A stretch of 63,987 bases of DNA, counting the filler, from Dirinaria sp. TL-2023a (taxonomy: Eukaryota): NCBI GenBank assembly GCA_051941275.1. It is 8 parts of 8 records of this genome, joined end to end, with 100 filler letters (N's around TTAATTAATTAA, not from the genome) between each part and the next. Parts side by side here need not be neighbours in the genome. Positions count along the whole stretch, not along the records: positions 48,663 to 56,631 come from JAVEBF010001249.1; 7 more parts are not named here. One strand, 5' to 3'. The notes under the pieces are model-generated. The model had not been told where the DNA came from, made no database searches, and was given only the letters and a program-made list of their open reading frames with translations. Made by a program: the position numbers and the translations under genes. Numbering within the stretch: the first letter of the stretch is position 1; each line of letters begins with the position of its first letter. Shown piece after piece: positions 45,475-60,075 of this stretch.

Positions 45475-46240
<766 letters not shown>

Positions 46241-47286
46241 AGAAGTTCCCTGAAAGTCTTGTGCCGGCAAAGATGTTTATCAAGTATTACTGCGTCGGTC
46301 TCCTCATCCGCCTCCGATAGTCTTTCCGTTGTCTCCCCTTTTCCACCTGTCCGAAGTACTTCCGCATTCCCTCCACATCTGGCGCGCGCTCGTGATCGTG
46401 CCCCCGATCTGATGCATACTTCGATGTGCATTCGGCGGTACAGCTCTATGCCATCTTGGTCGTCCTGCTTTTGTGTTGCTCATGTGGGAATGATAGGTGT
46501 TCATGCAGTGATAGATTTTAGTCCCTGAAAGCAATTCACGTTGAACGTTCTAATAGTCTACAACGCAAGTCACGGCCACTGCGTGATCCTCATCAAGCCC
46601 GCCTTTTCTTCAACTAAGTCCTGGAGCTTCTCAGCTTTTGGGTATATGATAGTGCCCTCAGAACGCAATATCCCTGCCATTTATAGCCGACTCCTGGTCC
46701 CACTGGTGTTCGACAAATTGCCCCCACATTTGTGATTTGCCAGCTATCGTATCAGTGTATCAATGTGGTAGCCTGTTTCAACCTGTACATCACATGCTGG
46801 CCCAATGATATCCATGGCTGTAGTTCGATTCCCTCAGGTAATTTATGACACTTTGGTCGTTCTGCAACGTCATAGTTACCTGCGCCTCAATCCAGCAACC
46901 GAACTGCGTACTCGTGCATATAATCACCAGTATTGTGGCATACTTGACTTTCAACTCTAGAGCAGAACATCGTATCAGAGATACCTCGTAGATAACGCAT
47001 TTAAACCCGAGACATCCACAGACAATAGGTACTTGGCCGTATCTCAAACATGTGGACAAAGGCCAAGTTTGCTCCTCCACCAAATCATGAGTCACGCTTT
47101 GTGAATAGGAAGTACAACACCTCTCTTCTTTCTATTCAAATTACATAAGAGGTCAAATTCATCTTCGTCAAGTATTCCCTCAAGTCTCTCTCAATCAATT
47201 CGTCCGTCGCTTGAACTCAACGTAGTTTGGGCAAACAAAACTTGAGTAGCAACCATCTGCACATAAAGAAACTCAAACCAGCAACT

Positions 47287-48562
47287 ATGCCTGCTACACG
47301 CGTAACTCTGGCTTCTAACGCAAACCAATCGATCAAAGCACCTTTGCTAGTACCATCGTCCGCTTCTCCGGATCCTGCATCACCGTCTTCCTATCGTGCC
47401 CTTGTCATCAAGACAGCGCTATCAAAACTGCGCTTAAAGAAGCCAAGCCGCGTCTTCGTTGCTGGCGGCAAGGAACTATTACATGCTGAAGATTGGAAAA
47501 TTGCGCTGAAGGACGACACAATCCTCCTCGTCTCAGCGGGCGAGGACTACGTGGGTGCGCGCCACGAAGATGCAGTGCGGAATGGTGTCGATAATATCAA
47601 TCCTGATTGTCGAATTGAGAATTTAGCAAGCAAAGCCTTTGTCGACGACCTTTCGCTCCGGCAATTGGAATCTGTAGCGCGAACTCTGCCAGGCATCATC
47701 CATGCGTGCGCTCAACCCGATCTGCATCCTGGCACCAAGTTTCCCATTGGTGCTGTACTTGTCTCACGGGGCTGGATACACCCTCCCCTGATCGGCTCTG
47801 ATATTGGCTGTGGAATGGCTTGGTACAAGACCACACTTACCAGAGCACAGGTCGAAGGGGACAAAGGTCGAAAGATAGCTGAAAAGCTACGGGGCTTGGA
47901 AGGTGCCTGGAGGAGGCAAAGTGATAGAGAAGTCTGGTTGACCAATGACAACAGGGAATGCTGTAAAGCTGGAGACGAATGGGATGCATCACTGGGCACG
48001 ATCGGCGCGGGCAATCATTTCGCAGAGGTGCAAGTCGTCGAAGAATCCTCGCCGGACGCTCAGCTCGGAGACACCAAACTGCAGCTTCACGAAGGGGATG
48101 TAGTTCTATTAGTGCACTCCGGCTCGAGAGGTTTTGGAGGTGATATTCTCCGCCGCTACACCGCGAATGGACACATCAGCCTCAAAGCAGACGAGCCAGC
48201 AGCCCAGCGCTATCTCGAAGAGCACGATCGCGCCTGCGACTGGGCATCCGGCAACCGCGATCTAATCGCCCTCCGATTCCTCGCTTGTCTAGAACCTGGC
48301 AACCCAGAATGGGACCTCGGCACCAACCTTACCCCCGTCGGTCAAGGAGAAACCTCACATCAATCGACCTTGCAAGCCAGATCTCAAATCTCGGAGCGAA
48401 AAGTTGTAGATATATGGCACAACAACGTCTCGATCACGCCTTGGCCACCATCAGCGCCTTCTTCTTCTTCCTCTTCTCCCACCCGATCCACCACCCCACC
48501 TCCCCAAAAACCCGAGCAAAAAGAACAAGAAAAAGTCTTCATCCACCGCAAAGGCGCCGCGC
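47287..48562 (+). CDS. RtcB-family RNA ligase (release-factor-H-coupled/RtcB2-like) with an N-terminal extension; truncated by contig end
   Basis: PDLHPG.KFPIG, PLIGSDIGCGM, SLGTIGAGNHFAEVQ, LLVHSGSRG, WHNN, IHRKGAA; no intron in the visible part. Confidence 0.88.
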
Positions 48563-48662: not shown

Positions 48663-48990
48663 CGGCATTAGCGTGCCTCGCTTATCTTCCAGCCTCGCCA
48701 AGCCATCTGTTTACCAACCTCGCCAACCTTCAACAACCTCCCAACCTCTTCCCACATCTCCAGGCTTCCCAGAATGCAAAGGACCATGGATCCACTCCAG
48801 CCATCGCGAATTCTATCATGGGATAGAATTCTGTTTCCTTACTTTTCTCATCTCCCAGTCCATCCCAGAACTTACATCCCACTAGCACCGTGCACGCATC
48901 CGCTCCTTGTACTTCTGCCCGTGCATTACTACCCACCTTGACTCGCAATTTTACCTCCTGTCAAGGAGATTACACTCTAACTCTCCAGAT

Positions 48991-49755
48991 ATGCGCTCAG
49001 CGCTGCCTTCCGCTCTGCTTGCTCTTACTCTCCCTTTACTCTCCAGCTGTGCTCCTTTACAACCGCAAGCCCCACGGCCTGTTGTCAAACGCGCCTCATA
49101 CTCAGTCGTCGCGGTCGACGGCAGCTCAGGCTCCGCGGCTACCTCAGACTCTGGCCAACCGGCCGCCGCGACCACCTTGGTACAAACACATGAGACGACC
49201 AAGACAGTAACGGCTCCAGCGAGCACGAAGCCTCCCAAAACGGAGGTGATTCTTTCGACAGTGGTGGTGCAAAATCCGCAGGTCACGAAAACGGTAGACG
49301 TCACGGAGCCGGGGAAGACTACAGTTATCACTGTGACAAAAGAGATACCGGATTCTCCATCCCCATCGGCCGAGTCCTACACGATCGTCAATCCTGCCGG
49401 GCCCTCTACCACAGCTTCATCGCCCCAAGTATCAGGCACCCCCAACTGTACAACATCGAAACCTCCGCCACCCCCTTCGATATCGTGCTCAAGCACAAAT
49501 ATCTCAACATCCACCTCTACATCGACAGCTACGGAAGCTGCAACCCTCTTCCCGCCAGCGCCAGTGGTGCCCGTTCCAATACCTGCTCTCCCAAGCACCT
49601 ACAGCGCAAGTCCTACAGCTGTGCCTCCACAGCCATACGATAACGGGCAATGGCATACCAACTACCGTGCATGGAATAGCACAGTGACCGCTGCTGGAAC
49701 AGGGACCGCTGCAGTAACGGGCACCGCTACATCCGTTTCATGGGGAGCATCATAA
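48991..49755 (+). CDS. Secreted Ser/Thr/Pro-rich (mucin-like) protein
   Basis: Signal peptide MRSALPSALLALTLPLL, KR site, YSVVAVDG, T/S/P-rich body, YDNGQWHTNY near the C-terminus. Confidence 0.8.
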   Translation: MRSALPSALLALTLPLLSSCAPLQPQAPRPVVKRASYSVVAVDGSSGSAATSDSGQPAAATTLVQTHETTKTVTAPASTKPPKTEVILSTVVVQNPQVTKTVDVTEPGKTTVITVTKEIPDSPSPSAESYTIVNPAGPSTTASSPQVSGTPNCTTSKPPPPPSISCSSTNISTSTSTSTATEAATLFPPAPVVPVPIPALPSTYSASPTAVPPQPYDNGQWHTNYRAWNSTVTAAGTGTAAVTGTATSVSWGAS

Positions 49756-52481: not shown

Positions 52482-53087
52482 ATGAAGCTCTTGGAGATTG
52501 AGCGGAAGTTCAACTGGAACCCGGCCAGCCTCAAAATTCTGATGTCGAACGGAGGCCAGCCCCCTTTTTCTTCCCGTCCTATGATCCAGTCGAAAACATT
52601 CCGGGACACCTACTACGATCTAGATGACAAACTCTCCAGCAAAGGCCTCTGGGTCCGAAAGCGTTTACTCTACGGCCCCAACAGAAAAGTCGAAAACGAT
52701 ACTTGGGAAGCCAAAAAATCCATGCCAGGAAGTTCTTTCGCGCGCTCAACCTATGATGAAACTCAAGACCCCAGTCGGATTCTGCAGATGATCAAGAACT
52801 ACGTCCCAGATTGTGCTGGAACGGATGAGTCTTTTGGATTAGAGAAAATGTGCCAATTTGAAACATACCGGCGGTCGTTTCTGGCAGACGGGAAGTTTAC
52901 AGTCGTACTCGATGAGACGGATTTTGGGCACTCGGCTGGCGAAGTCGAATTACTCGCTGAGGACGAAAAGCAGGCTCACGCGGATATTGATGTCTTCTTG
53001 GCTCGCTATGCGTGGCTTTTCGATTGCTCCAGGCCGAAGGGGAAGCTCACAGCTTATTTCGAAAAGTATCCTCGTAATAGTGTGTGA
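52482..53087 (+). CDS. CYTH / triphosphate tunnel metalloenzyme (thiamine-triphosphatase-like), 201 aa
   Basis: ExExKF signature (LEIERKF), FRDTYYD, LWVRKR, WEAK, F.T.RRSF, VVLDETDFGHSAGEVEL, KGKLTAYF; intronless. Confidence 0.88.
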   Translation: MKLLEIERKFNWNPASLKILMSNGGQPPFSSRPMIQSKTFRDTYYDLDDKLSSKGLWVRKRLLYGPNRKVENDTWEAKKSMPGSSFARSTYDETQDPSRILQMIKNYVPDCAGTDESFGLEKMCQFETYRRSFLADGKFTVVLDETDFGHSAGEVELLAEDEKQAHADIDVFLARYAWLFDCSRPKGKLTAYFEKYPRNSV

Positions 53088-53239: not shown

Positions 53240-54283
53240 TCACCAGTCCAGATCACCCTGAGAAGCCTCTCCCACGCAATCCGACTTCGACCATTCGTAT
53301 ATCCCCCCTCGCTCCTCAAACCCATCTTCATCCCAGAAGACATCTTTCAATGCCTCAGCGACTCCAACCTCGAGGATACTTTTTGTCGGCTTTGCAACAC
53401 CCTTGTTCAGGAAACGCAAGTACTCGTCAAGCAGCAAGTAAGAGCTCGCCATCACTTTGTTACTCTCTGGGACGAAACTTTCCTGGTGCTTATGCTTATC
53501 GCAAAAAAGATCGAACTCATGATCCTCAATAACAAAAGGGCTCGCATCACGAAGTGTCCGCTCGGATCCATTCTCCTCTGGCACGACGAGCACTTGGAAG
53601 CACTTCCAGCGAAAAGGTTGTATCTTTTCGATGTTGGCGTTCATGTCTTCCTCGAAATTGTACCGATTCACCACAGTATTGATCTTCAGCTTGATACCGT
53701 GTTCTTTGCACAATCGACTCAGGTTCGTGACCGTCTTGAGATGGTTACCGGCACCTCGTCCAATCTTAATGTTTGTCGCTTCGTCGAAGGAGTCGCAGGA
53801 AATGGCCATGATGTCCAGGAACTCGCCGTACTTGTCGAGCCATTTCTGCGTGACTTTACTACCGTTTGTGACGAGGGAGACAGATTCCAACTTGAGGGTT
53901 TCCTTGCAATATCTCACCAGTTGGCCAAGGAACTCGGCATTCATGAATGGTTCTCCGCCAGCGAAGTTCATCTTTTTCATCCCAGCATCTTTGAGAAGAG
54001 CCATGGCTTTCTTCGCATTAAGCAGAGTTTCAACATGGGAAGTCTTGGCTGTATGAAAGCAGAACCCTGGAGTAAAATTAGTGATGGGTCTCCAACAGAC
54101 CGAACGTGGAACATGAAATCCCATACCACAGGTATAGTTGCATTGCCTAGTCAAGTGATAGTTGACGGAGACGGGGATTTTCTTTGTGGCCGCTTTGGAC
54201 CTCACATGGTAATACAATTCGAAAATCAAACCCGTGGTTCCCAAAAGAAGGGCAATTACAACCAAGAGAGTATGGCTGAGCAT
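53240..54283 (-). CDS. RSAD2: Viperin / RSAD2-like radical SAM enzyme (putative ddhNTP synthase), 327 aa after splicing
   Basis: After removing intron 54067-54126: [20 protein letters not shown] (CxxxCxxC), [73 protein letters not shown].YEWS; hydrophobic N-terminus. Confidence 0.95.
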   Translation of the reverse strand: [347 protein letters not shown]

Positions 54284-54833
54284 CTCCAAATCGAAGTTTG
54301 TAAAAATGGATGTAGTGATAGAGAAGGCCAGATTTCGTGCTAGGAGACAGTCTGTACAGGGAGACCGACTGTTGGAAATAGGCCTGATTTGATGACCTCT
54401 AAGGAAAGAAATTCTATCTACCGGGATAACCCAGATACATAAAGGCATCTGAGGTTTGCCTATATGGTTGCCATACTAACAAGCATGATGAAAGAAATCA
54501 AAGGATTCTGAGAAAGAACGTCATGCTGGAAGGATGACTGGAGCGTCAAGACATCCTTCCAAATGGTGCTATTCCGGGAGGAGGAGTTGACCGGAACATC
54601 AAATCGCTCAAACAAAGCGATATGAGCAAACGTCTGATCATCTGCCCCAAAACGCGGATTGCATCGGCTAGCTGCACACCGCTGCCTGCTAGTACCATCA
54701 TTCAGACTGAGATGGATCGGTGCACTTAAATAAAAGTCCAAGGTACAGAAGACCACATTGGTGCTCTGAATTCCACGAGACCACGGAAGAAAGGTAAACG
54801 CTTGACTACCAGTGCTTAAAGTGTGCTACTGAA
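54284..54833. promoter_or_regulatory. Putative bidirectional promoter between viperin and the kinase
   Basis: 550 bp separate two divergent ATGs; inferred from geometry only. Confidence 0.45.
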
Positions 54834-55757
54834 ATGGAGATGACTCAAGAAGGATCTGACAAGAATGAGGCAACCAAGATCGTTTGCGTTATCGGTGAGA
54901 TCTTTGCGGCTCTACTAGTCCCATTGCCGGAAGCATGACTAACCAACCCATCCAGGAGGTCCAGGAGTAGGCAAAGGAACGCAATGCGCAAGACTGGCTA
55001 CAGATCTCGAGCTGGTACACATATCTGTCGGCGATCTCCTAAGGAAAGAGGCTTTGCGGCCAGTTCTCGGTCAAGATCTCCAAATCAAGTCCATCATGAG
55101 CAATGCATCCCTTGTTCCTTACGAACATGTACAGAAAACCCTCAGCCTCGGCCTCGTGGATCACATACAGAATGGGCGGGATAACTTTCTTATCGATGGC
55201 TTCCCCCGCAGCAAGGAGCAGACTCAATTCTTTGATGGAAAGGGAGGTGCCTTTCCAACTCAAGCGTTGAAGGGTGGGATACTGACTCTTCTCACAGAAC
55301 TGGAAGGCAGATGCGGTTCTTCACTTTCATTGCTCTGAAGCCGTTATGCTCGCGCGCATGTTGAAGAGAGCTGAAACGTCTGGGAGAGTTGACGATACCG
55401 CTGAAGTCTTCCGCAAGAGATACGCTGCACATATGGAAGAGATCTCAAGCGTCACGGAGGCATTCCCAGGGAAGGTTATTGACGTACGAGTTAGTCTTTA
55501 GTACTACGGAAAAGTCACTTACTATGATTAGGTGGATTGCGAAAGGGCTCTCGACGACATCTATGAGGAGCTCAAAGGCCAAGTTAAGGTAAGTAGCTGC
55601 TGGATGCCATCACATCCTTTATTAACAAAATTTCAAGGAGATCTTTGGAATCGTGCAGGAACCAAAGGAGGAGTTTGATGAAATTGGCGATGCAACCTCG
55701 CTTTCAGAGTCGGGCCCAAAGAGCGATCTGAAAGCTCATCCATCCTCAGCATCGTAG
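54834..55757 (+). CDS. UMP-CMP/adenylate kinase family nucleoside monophosphate kinase, 5 exons
   Basis: Manual splice: KIVCVIG|GPGVGKGTQC (intron 54895-54955), HISVGDLLR, FLIDGFPRS.EQ, VLHFHCSE.VML.RMLKRAETSGRVDD, VIDVDCERALDDIYEEL (introns 55484-55531 and 55589-55637). Intron 2 borders are ambiguous. Confidence 0.85.
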
Positions 55758-56731: not shown

Positions 56732-57455
56732 GGAAGGCACGATGAGGTGGTACGGGAGGGTGGAGGGCGTGGGGTATTGCGTGCGGGCGAGGGAGAGAAG
56801 GGGGAGGAATTCGAGCATAGAACCTGGTTTGAGAGCGTGAGTTTGAGATGAGATATGTGCGTTCGGGGAGAGGGAGTTGGGATTAAAATACCGGGCCAGC
56901 CATGCAGACAGAGCAGTGGGATTGCGTCGGGCTTGGAAGAGAATAGGGCGACGAAGTGTATGCGGAAAGTATCTCCCTTGTCCTCGATGGAGGTCGTGAA
57001 ATGGTGGAAGGAATTCATGTGCGCTTCGCACGCACGCCTGAGACATAGCGATGTCAAATGAATTAGCGGAGTCATAGGAATCTCGTAATACGATTGGAAA
57101 AAGCTTCAATGGCTACGAATATCTTCGACTGATCACTTCTCCCTTTTTTTTTCTGCAAGTATACTACACCATCGCAAAAAGAAAGAAGACGAAAAAAACT
57201 TTTCCACGATATTGAAAGCCCTACCACCTCAACTTACCAATCAAAGCTATCAAGCCAATACTCCTTCGCATTCGCCAACCACGATGTAGTAATCCCATAG
57301 TGGCCATCTTCCTGCGAGCTTTCATACGAGGGCGCCGCGACTTTGCTATACCTTAGCAATGTGCGGAACTCCTGGATATCGCTCTCAGGGATGGAGATCG
57401 TGAAAAGGTCGATGGAGTGAGCTCCTTGCGGAAGAGTACCGAATGACTCAGACAT
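56732..57455 (-). CDS. Microsomal-type epoxide hydrolase, 5' part (truncated by contig edge)
   Basis: EHN N-terminus (FTISIP...YGITTSWL..AKEYW..FDW|R..E..MNSF.HF), IHFVALFS..PDAIPLLCLHGWPGS..EF, YHLIVPS. Confidence 0.9.
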
Positions 57456-58169
57456 GATTGATATATTGATTGCAGCTGGAATTGGAGGTCTGTAAATTTT
57501 GCCTTGGAAAAATAGAAGGGTAGGCTGCTTGTACGAATGTAGAAAATGTCAGGTGAGAGTAAAATTGTAGCTCTGTTGCAAAGGCGAGAGCTGAGAAAGG
57601 AATTAAGATGACTTCCTCACCTTTAGAATACCCATAGAACGATACGGTATAGCGGTGTATGTACTGCTGCCGCCTGCTAGTGCAATTATTAATCTCTGTT
57701 TGAGTCACTGGGAATTAGTAATACCTTATGCAGGTTAATTGCTCTCAGGATTCCACTGGGGACTGTTCCTGCAGTCATCTTTGCATATCCCACGGTTTTT
57801 TTCGAGAAGCGATCTGACCTTCGATGTCGAACATGATCCTCAGTAATGGAAGCGATCAAGTATGCAATAACAGAGACGAAGTAGCAGAGGTTGATACGAG
57901 CTTGAAAACTAGCACGAAGTCGATCATGGTAGACACTAGTGGCATTTGGGTATCCGGCTATTGATATCCTAACACTACTAAACCAAAGAAAAACCGAAAG
58001 CATTCGATGTACGTAAGGTAAGAGTGGCCTAATAATGCCATACAACGCAATTCGCATCGCTTGTCCTCTTTGGATGTTTACACTACTACATGTACCCAAC
58101 CTAGAACATTGCATTTTCTGCTTCCGTGGTTAGAGAGAGAAACGTGTTTAGCCCTCAGATACCACCTCC

Positions 58170-60075
58170 CTACACATTCTTCTCCGACTCCTGGCTCAAT
58201 TCTGCCAAACGCTTCTGCGTGTAGCTCTGCTGCCGCGATCCCATTCCCGGCGCGACCGAACTCTGCCTCCTGCCCATCATGCTCTGCCGCCGGTTGTCAC
58301 TCATATACGCCGCTGAAGGCACGAAAGAAACCCGTCGGCCGTCACCACCCTGCCGGGCATCCTGGAGTTGCTGTGCAAACGGCGAGCGCTTACGAAGAAC
58401 GGGCCCTTGCCAGTAGATGACGTAGACGGCAATGACCAGCACGAAGGCGATGCAGAAGAGGATCGTGGACGCGTCCTGGAGGTGTTTCTTGCCGCCGATG
58501 TTGGTGAAGAAGGGGGTTGCGGGGATCGTAAGAACACCGGCGAGAAAGTCGCGAGACCAGCCGTTGCCACCGGTTGCTGAGGCTGAGTACGGACCGTAGG
58601 CGCAGATCATGTAGTCGATGGTAGCCATGTAGATGGAGTAGTTGGCGATGCCGATGATGGCAGCGAAAATCATGGAGCCGATCCACTGCAAGACGGATTA
58701 GATACGAATGCTGGTACTTAAAGTGAAAGAACTCACGTGGATCGGTGGGCCACCGCTGGTCCATGCAAAACCTATAAGACCGATGGGCAGACAAGGAGCG
58801 GTCCACAGGAGCCACCAGAGCCGCGACTCGTATTGCGACCTCTCATCATCTGGATGCTGCTCGCGATCTCTTTTGTTGCGTTGAATGGCCGGGATGAACA
58901 GAATCCATGCAATGATATAGCCAACGCCGATAGAGCAGAAGGATAGACCCTGGGCGACGGTGCCAAAGTTCCACTGCTCGTAGACCAGCGTGAAGGATTG
59001 GATGAACATGAAGACCAAGGCATCGGAGAAACCGGACAGGAGGGACAATACCAAAACGATGGGTTCGGTCAGGAACATTTTGAAGGGCCGGATCCAGGTG
59101 ATGAGGATCTCTTTGACAGAGAAGCGCTCCTTGAAAGGCGTGATTTCGTTGGGTCCATAAACGTTGGGACTCTGTCCGCTCGCGCGTCGCTTCTTCGCAA
59201 TCTTATCTATCATGCAGGTCGTCCGCGTCTCGGGGACGAGGAGCAGATGAGCAAGCTGCACCGCTCCTCCAAAGATGAGCTGGATCCAGATGGACCATTG
59301 CCATGCAAGATAGCGTTCGCTGAATCCACCGACCACCGGGCCAAGTATGGAACCTCCCACGGACGAGAAAACCACGTAGGCGACAGCGTACTGCTGACTC
59401 TCCGCATCCCACATATCAGCAACCATGCCCAAGGTCACGGAACCTCCGGCTGAGGAGAGACCACCGAGAGCGCGGCCAACCATGATGGAGGCAAAGTTGG
59501 GGGCGAGAGCGACTGGGAGCTGCCAGATGTTGACCAGGAAAAGGGAGGCTTGAAGGACGGGTTTGCGGCCAAACTCTTCCGACCTAGATCATCTGTTAGT
59601 TTCTGGCTGTGAGGCAATACATAACGAAGTCGGCTTACCATGGAGCCCACAGCTCGCAACCAAAAGCGTAAGTGACGAGGAAGATCATGGCACCGCATCG
59701 TGCAGCTTGTGCGCTGACCCCAAACTGTTTGGAGATACCTTTGAGGCCGTTCGAGTAGAGACTGGTGTTGAAGTTCATGGACACTTGGACGAGGAAGATG
59801 ATCGTAAGGATAGTCCACTTCTTCCACGTGGGGAAGGAGTAGCCCAGCTCGTCGTAGCAGTCATCCTCCGTCAGCTCGATCCTATCGTCGTCAGGGTCGT
59901 TTGGAGCGACGGCCTTTTCATTGCCAGGAGACACATTCTCGTATTCTTGTGGAGCGGTAGCTTTGGTATTGGAAGAAGCATCGGAGCCATTGCCTGGTTC
60001 AGCTGGCTCACCTGGGCTTCCGGGTTGATGAACAAGCTGGCTGTCGTTGGTGGGAAAGTGGGCTACTTGAGCCAT
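58170..60075 (-). CDS. MFS transporter, DHA1 (polyamine/multidrug) family
   Basis: WKKWTIL, ELWAPW|SEE.GRKP, GRALGGLSSAGGSVTLGMVADMW, PETR, RPFKMFLTEPIV, IDYMICAYGPYSASA; two introns. Confidence 0.92.

Follow-up and report, generated by a model that had tools for sequence, protein, structure and literature searches.

The locus studied here raises the question of whether a viperin gene and a nucleotide kinase gene that stand head to head in Dirinaria sp. TL-2023a act as one unit, and which genes this unit comprises. The window, by which we mean the whole stretch of 63,987 nucleotides analysed from assembly GCA_051941275.1, carries the locus on the contig JAVEBF010001249.1 (48663-56631). The gene pair of a preliminary description is present, but the unit is a trio that also contains a gene for a CYTH domain protein (52482-53087). 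We propose that it is a conserved three-gene fungal module for 3'-deoxy-3',4'-didehydro (ddh) nucleotides, with a kinase that is spliced from a GG or GA donor in one lineage, and give this reading a probability of about 0.5. Gene content, linkage, purifying selection, catalytic motifs and the donor letters are direct observations.

The linkage of the genes was examined at the locus and in other fungi. Viperin was found on the minus and the kinase on the plus strand, as had been described, and their ATG codons are 550 bp apart; the stop codons of viperin and the CYTH gene, which are tail to tail, are 152 bp apart. A metagenome scan gave nine loci, one of which was a 1.7-kb contig without flanks. 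The eight loci with long flanks represent three independent groups: L005; L006-L009, whose sequences agree fully over the compared stretch; and L011-L013 (99%). Kinase, viperin and CYTH were present in all eight, and kinase and viperin were divergent in every one, which bears out the head-to-head arrangement. CYTH was tail to tail with viperin in 5/8 loci and lay beyond the kinase in the other three (L011-L013). No further common gene was found among the window, L005, L006 and L011. An NMP (nucleoside monophosphate) kinase lies within three genes of viperin at the locus, and this is kept in relatives. Between the window and L005, the ratio of nonsynonymous to synonymous substitution rates (dN/dS) was 0.11-0.31 across the viperin, kinase and CYTH genes.

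Among the top 120 matches for each protein, 16 CYTH-viperin pairs were on identically sized contigs, compared to a mean of 0.25 and a maximum of 4 in a shifted control. In Aspergillus, the viperin and CYTH accessions were 1-5 numbers apart in 8/8 member pairs, which are closely related and so amount to about one event, and A. pseudonomiae showed a consecutive CYTH-kinase-viperin accession run. Adjacent tags were observed for CYTH and viperin in Xanthoria calcicola and Wetmoreana and for viperin and kinase in Usnea, Wilcoxina and Lepraria finkii, and in Psora the CYTH and kinase tags were two apart. We conclude that the viperin-kinase-CYTH linkage is very probably functional. In one named lichen fungus, viperin and CYTH each occur twice, distributed over two contigs (P0177/P0056 and P0187/P0068/P0288), which suggests a duplicated module. 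A public model of 768 residues that clusters with a CYTH protein (P0366) matched ADK and Kelch and is probably a merger of neighbouring kinase and CYTH genes.

The divergent intergenic region of 550 bp (54284-54833, unstranded) is a candidate shared promoter. No match to a TATA-like pattern was found in it. Four short blocks are common to the window and L005, where the intergenic region is about 400 bp, and to no other locus. The blocks at 54620-54710 and 54330-54341, kept in L005 and absent from L006 and L011, are possible promoter elements.

The association of viperin with a kinase in fungi is already published. CMPK1-type kinases were reported within three genes of fungal viperins in the available text of Shomar et al. 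(bioRxiv 10.1101/2023.09.13.557418), who interpret this linkage as convergence towards the CMPK2 partnership and as support for UTP (uridine triphosphate)-specific viperins. The viperin-kinase pair of the window is therefore one more case of a published pattern, to which the CYTH linkage and, as read from the sequences, the GA/GG kinase donor of a subclade are added. The main text of Shomar et al. has no mention of orientation, promoter, intron or a CYTH neighbour, and the head-to-head arrangement may either be new relative to that work or be contained in its figures. Four viperins with a fused triphosphatase or cyclase domain are described in the same work, and the portions of the literature covered held no linkage of viperin with CYTH or a triphosphatase beyond these. 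Compared to the fungal pairs as described there, the kinase of the window represents a paralogue of its own, has Val at the base-binding site and belongs to a subclade with GA/GG donors.

As in the vertebrate RSAD2-CMPK2 pair, an adjoining kinase would raise the substrate, there for the synthesis of ddhCTP (Shomar et al.; PMC10058120, available text). Unlike the kinase of the window, vertebrate CMPK2 is phylogenetically distinct and has a mitochondrial targeting domain (Shomar et al., in part). No CYTH gene is described at the vertebrate pair. The RSAD2 and CMPK2 genes are taken to be divergent; the available text of PMC11053446 and PMC10058120 contained no passage on their orientation. Of the proposal that a CMPK2-like layout had been built independently, the convergent linkage stands, with the priority of Shomar et al., and the common orientation is presumed.

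The viperin gene encodes 327 residues from the ATG at 54283 to the stop at 53240 and has a single intron. Exon 1 (54127-54283, minus strand) contains a hydrophobic N-terminal helix at residues 5-23, with a Kyte-Doolittle mean of 2.2 over 19 residues. The GT-AG intron of 60 nt (54067-54126, minus strand) is in frame and lies inside the CxxxCxxC motif of radical SAM (S-adenosylmethionine) enzymes, which is assembled as CNYTCGFC by its removal; the viperin match is interrupted at the same site in L005 and L006. Exon 2 (53240-54066, minus strand) codes for the radical SAM barrel, the beta-8 loop NKGVAKP and the C-terminal LDW. Exon 2 alone passed the NCBIfam viperin model NF038283 (215.3 bits, cut-off 180) and scored 342.6 with TIGR04278, below the cut-off of 450. 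Its dN/dS was 0.17 between the window and L005. The top match in the PDB was chain 6b4c_A (E 1.9e-110), and 6B4C is identical over the aligned part to 7N7I, the structure of the Trichoderma virens enzyme that makes mainly ddhUTP (Shomar et al., available text). The likeness to the T. virens enzyme (E about 1e-110) extends across the barrel, and the beta-8 loop is equally short. Unlike this enzyme, which has Arg257, the viperin of the window has Lys at the equivalent beta-8 position, as far as the numbering can be transferred. Since Lys replaces the Arg257 equivalent, the product, ddhUTP or another, is not certain; a fungal enzyme able to make all four ddh-nucleoside triphosphates (ddhNTPs) is described in the accessible part of 10.64898/2026.09.10.750538. 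Protein searches of the genome gave at least one viperin, at least one CYTH and at least two kinase matches.

The kinase gene is on the plus strand and runs from the ATG at 54834 to the stop ending at 55757. The full model has five exons and 237 residues and is free of stops and frameshifts. Exon 1 (54834-54894) has a second in-frame ATG at 54840, and intron 1 (54895-54955) is GT-AG. Exon 2 (54956-55242) codes for the P-loop GGPGVGKGTQC, SVGDLLR, SNASLVP and LIDGFPR. Exon 3 (55298-55483) encodes a short LID with arginines and DD (SGRVDD) and is followed by exon 4 (55532-55588). Exon 5 with the stop (55638-55757) encodes an acidic, poorly conserved tail, and its start agrees with the relatives P0255 and P0256.

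The assignment of the kinase to the adenylate/UMP-CMP family, and not to the thymidylate-kinase-like family of CMPK2, was upheld. Pfam ADK matched with 73.8 bits, and no thymidylate-kinase (CMPK2-like) model matched in the Pfam and NCBIfam scans. The spliced relative P0256 had yeast uridylate kinase (1uky) as its best PDB match. A housekeeping URA6-like gene of the same genome is separate from the kinase of the window, with 40% identity. In a tree of 99 rows and 96 columns, whose deep branches were weak, the kinase was in its own clade (8 rows, support 98/89), apart from the housekeeping clade (99/95). It falls outside the UMP-CMP kinase family proper by the score of its relative P0256, which is below the cut-off, by Val in place of Ala and by its position outside the housekeeping clade, and its sequence makes it a divergent paralogue, presumably similar in action, in the short-LID group of AK1 and UMP-CMP kinases. 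The Val is in SVGDLLR, at a position that we take from adenylate kinase work to be a base contact; it was observed in 45/50 family rows, while four housekeeping controls and the URA6 of the same genome had Ala or Thr. The two other base-contact positions have Leu and Gln, so the substrate is not settled by the sequence. A separate fungal family (for example P0300, P0304, P0306 and P0327) has an HD 5'-deoxynucleotidase-like domain fused to a related kinase, a further pairing of a kinase with a phosphatase, and the HD-fused kinase also has Val in SVGDLLR where this was seen (P0283).

The substitution in SNASLVP that the preliminary description had noted is real. The Ala occurs in 12/13 kinases of one subclade, and Gly is kept in 34/37 other family kinases, including the viperin-linked L006 and L011. 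The residue was rejected as a specificity marker: being confined to one subclade, the exchange says little about specificity, and on the alignment it is a lineage marker.

The same subclade is distinguished by the donor of intron 2. Introns 1, 3 and 4 of the kinase begin with GT, whereas intron 2 (55243-55297, plus strand, 55 nt) begins with GGAGGT and has a branch-like CTGAC and the acceptor CAG; its splicing is predicted. The homologous introns begin with GAAAGT in L005, GTGAGT in L006 and GTAATT in L011, and have lengths of 54, 53 and 76 nt. The exon lengths of 285 (exon 2, counted from the P-loop), 186 and 57 nt are the same in the window, in L005 and in the GT-bearing L006. For other relatives, the donor was decoded from unspliced protein read-throughs, where Val corresponds to GT, Glu to GA and Gly to GG. 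The donor tree of 47 rows was made by a quick method; the Ala subclade has a core of 13 rows within a group of 15 (support 91), the two long-branch rows of which were counted as outside. Within the subclade, P0256 is spliced and P0255 is a gene model that carries two additional residues. Of the 11 read-throughs that remain, 8 had Glu, 2 Gly and 1 Val, so that 10/11 were non-GT. Outside, 8 spliced models of 34 rows were set aside, and 24/26 read-throughs had Val and 2/26 were non-GT. In P0449 (E-S) and P0456 (V-S) the intron starts are alike and the donor codon differs.

Between the window and L005, both of which are non-GT, dN/dS was 0.11 for exons 3 and 4 and 0.31 for exon 2, which argues that the frame downstream of the intron is translated. 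In P0256, GWKA follows directly on FFDKE at the ancestral junction; P0256 comes from a contig of 1054 nt that is probably a transcript, because all introns are absent from it. When all stop-free in-frame joins were scored, of which the window has 25 and L005 has 26, the best was the ancestral non-canonical join, and the same scoring picked the GT join in the control L006. The GG/GA donor of intron 2 is, on these sequences, probably used for splicing. Retention of the intron was rejected, since it runs into a stop in the window and in L005, as was a nested twin intron: two nested introns need more than 55 nt. Minor non-canonical combinations make up 0.257% of fungal introns (PMC7072748 Table 1, available text). 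Functional GA-AG introns are described in the accessible parts of PMC10668435 (Trema SYMRK intron 12, where splicing from the GA donor can reach an efficiency of about 95%) and PMC7072748 (Eurytemora, Oikopleura). Unlike these, GA and GG alternate here at one homologous, presumably spliced donor across a fungal clade, with no U1 small nuclear RNA (snRNA) variant seen. Nothing on intron 2 of the kinase was found in the portions of the non-canonical intron literature covered.

The third gene, CYTH (52482-53087, plus strand), is intronless and encodes a thiamine-triphosphatase-like protein of 201 residues. The Pfam CYTH match was 30.8 bits (cut-off 23.2), and a profile comparison with mammalian THTPA gave an E value of 1.9e-16. 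A structure model based on the alignment had a predicted local distance difference test score (pLDDT) of 96.4; in a Foldseek search with it the top nine matches were all THTPA, with a best template modelling (TM) score of about 0.73 and an identity of about 25%. The EXEXK motif, the tunnel fold and the acidic and basic tunnel residues are present, which makes the protein a triphosphate tunnel metalloenzyme. Y44, R59, R61, K78, R130, E154 and E156 were kept in 73/73 aligned rows, and dN/dS between the window and L005 was 0.12. The protein is like mammalian THTPA in fold, EXEXK, Tyr-Lys dyad, Trp and tunnel arginines and unlike it in its low identity and its linkage to viperin. Among the long CYTH matches, radical SAM was found in 0/9 proteins scanned for viperin fusions; longer forms were not searched.

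From these data, a sequence of events can be proposed for the module. The divergent viperin and kinase would be expressed together on induction, as the layout suggests. The kinase mRNA would be completed by a short-intron splice at the ancestral position, the GG/GA donor keeping +1G, +3A and the GT at +5/+6. By its family and the precedent of vertebrate CMPK2, the kinase would raise the pyrimidine supply from NMP to the diphosphate, and on this analogy it probably supplies viperin. The membrane-anchored viperin would convert UTP, perhaps also cytidine triphosphate (CTP), to the chain terminators ddhUTP and ddhCTP, if it acts like the T. virens and Aspergillus homologues, and these might terminate viral RNA chains, as the fungal homologues suggest. 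CYTH would remove a terminal phosphate, most likely that of ddhNTP, as an off-switch or for self-protection; judged from linkage and fold, the chance that ddhNTP is its substrate falls slightly short of even. An extension of the proposal, in which kinase, viperin and CYTH are a self-limiting circuit and the weak GA/GG donor of one lineage was kept by selection as a splicing valve that limits the supply of substrate until infection or stress, is unlikely.

Several points weigh against this module. CYTH retains W57, the thiamine-binding Trp of THTPA, which favours thiamine triphosphate (ThTP) as its substrate. Two named viperin-CYTH pairs are on one contig but 8 and 225 accession numbers apart. 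Lys was found at the Arg257 equivalent in 97/108 viperin homologues, and the UTP-selective T. virens enzyme has Arg. P0256 is below the cut-offs for UMP-CMP kinases (TIGR01359, 142.3 versus 207.6) and for AK1 (147.7 versus 284.1). With respect to the donor, only the window and L005 were read as DNA in the subclade, the others having been decoded from protein, and the subclade member with Val has a GT donor. The non-GT excess in the subclade (Fisher P 1.9e-6) was calculated from related rows that are not independent. Joins that use the GT four bases further on are in frame in the window and in L005 and score only 6-10 bits lower than the ancestral join, the scoring profile included P0256, and P0256 itself was read in its spliced form. 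Finally, the enzyme activities, the co-regulation and the splice are all inferred.

The donor can be read in two other ways. Intron 2 could be spliced from the GT at +5/+6 to a downstream AG, which would make the kinase two or three residues shorter. This GT is kept in the window and L005 with stop-free in-frame joins in both, non-canonical combinations are as rare as cited above, and both U1 snRNA copies found (L014 and L015, both under the Rfam cut-off) carry the normal 5' end that pairs with splice sites. These copies, which differ from each other beyond the 5' end, also led us to reject a variant U1 snRNA as an explanation of the donor. The acceptor that the shifted GT requires, however, differs between the window and L005, and both the ancestral CAG and the exon 3 Trp codon persist, as judged by eye in out-of-frame read-throughs. 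The exon lengths equal to those of L006 and the junction in P0256 also point to the ancestral join. We regard the shifted splice as rather unlikely, and rate it no lower in view of the margin of 6-10 bits and the inclusion of P0256 in the profile. Alternatively, the kinase could be a splice-dead pseudogene, or the GG an assembly error, in keeping with the non-GT donor and with the existence of degenerate family members (P0533, P0534). Against this, non-GT donors recur throughout the subclade, a comparison of two non-GT lineages shows stronger constraint on exons 3 and 4 than on exon 2, and the five-exon model is intact; a dead gene or an assembly error is very unlikely.

The trio can also be explained without a ddhNTP phosphatase. 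CYTH might be a true thiamine triphosphatase that returns ThTP made by an AK1-type kinase to thiamine diphosphate; in that case a CYTH partner would be needed because AK1-type kinases make ThTP. Its nearest structures are all THTPA, the equivalents of Trp53, Tyr39 and Lys65 are kept, and the AK1 model scored P0256 slightly better than the UMP-CMP model; AK1 synthesises ThTP and Trp53 stacks on the thiazole in the available text of PMC8615392. The same text states that no specific thiamine triphosphatase has been identified in fungi, the identity to THTPA is only about 25%, and the four fusions of Shomar et al. (available text) tie such domains to viperin, so that we hold the thiamine explanation, though the chief rival for the role of CYTH, to be fairly unlikely. 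The trio might instead be a biosynthetic or recycling pathway, in which CYTH strips ddhNTP towards a ddh-nucleoside or monophosphate that can be exported, and the kinase acts on ddhNMP to phosphorylate it again, in place of UMP/CMP. The Val fixed at the base-binding position of SVGDLLR and absent from the housekeeping controls would fit this pathway, as would the tight clustering that is typical of fungal metabolite pathways. But no transporter, regulator or other common gene was present in the compared loci, and enzymes of the THTPA type take off a single phosphate, which makes such a pathway unlikely. Chance neighbours with independent functions are highly improbable: no promoter motif is common beyond the closest relative, but lichen fungi, Aspergillus and a Pezizales-like group all show the linkage, despite changes in gene order and unrelated flanks.

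If the module exists as proposed, CYTH is a concrete candidate for the means by which cells withstand or remove the ddhNTP chain terminators that they make, and action on ddhNTP would be the first function for fungal THTPA-like proteins. The clade-wide GA/GG donor with its GT relatives offers a natural system for studying the tolerance of the fungal spliceosome to changes at +2. Because of this donor, public kinase models are truncated or mis-spliced: the model of the window gene (P0515) lacks the P-loop and is mis-spliced around the GG, and P0449 ends inside intron 2. Such models could make surveys undercount viperin-linked kinases.

The window is made up of eight contigs, each about 8 kb long, with seven N-flanked linkers (8028-56731); since eight unrelated contigs were joined, genes across the breaks are not neighbours. 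The spliceosomal introns, together with the closest named homologues, indicate a filamentous ascomycete near the lichen-forming fungi. On the contig of the trio, an open reading frame of 282 residues at 48907-49755 (plus strand) is Ser/Thr/Pro-rich and probably secreted; it had no Pfam match and lacks an equivalent in the related loci. On the next contig, unlinked to the trio, are the N-terminus of an epoxide hydrolase (56740-57075, minus strand) and a major facilitator superfamily transporter (58000-60075, minus strand). An ordinary Arf-family GTPase gene with introns is at 45484-46250 (plus strand). The gene for an RtcB-family RNA ligase, a family that is patchy in fungi, is at 47227-48562 (plus strand), where it is truncated by the contig end and matched Pfam RtcB with 125.8 bits.

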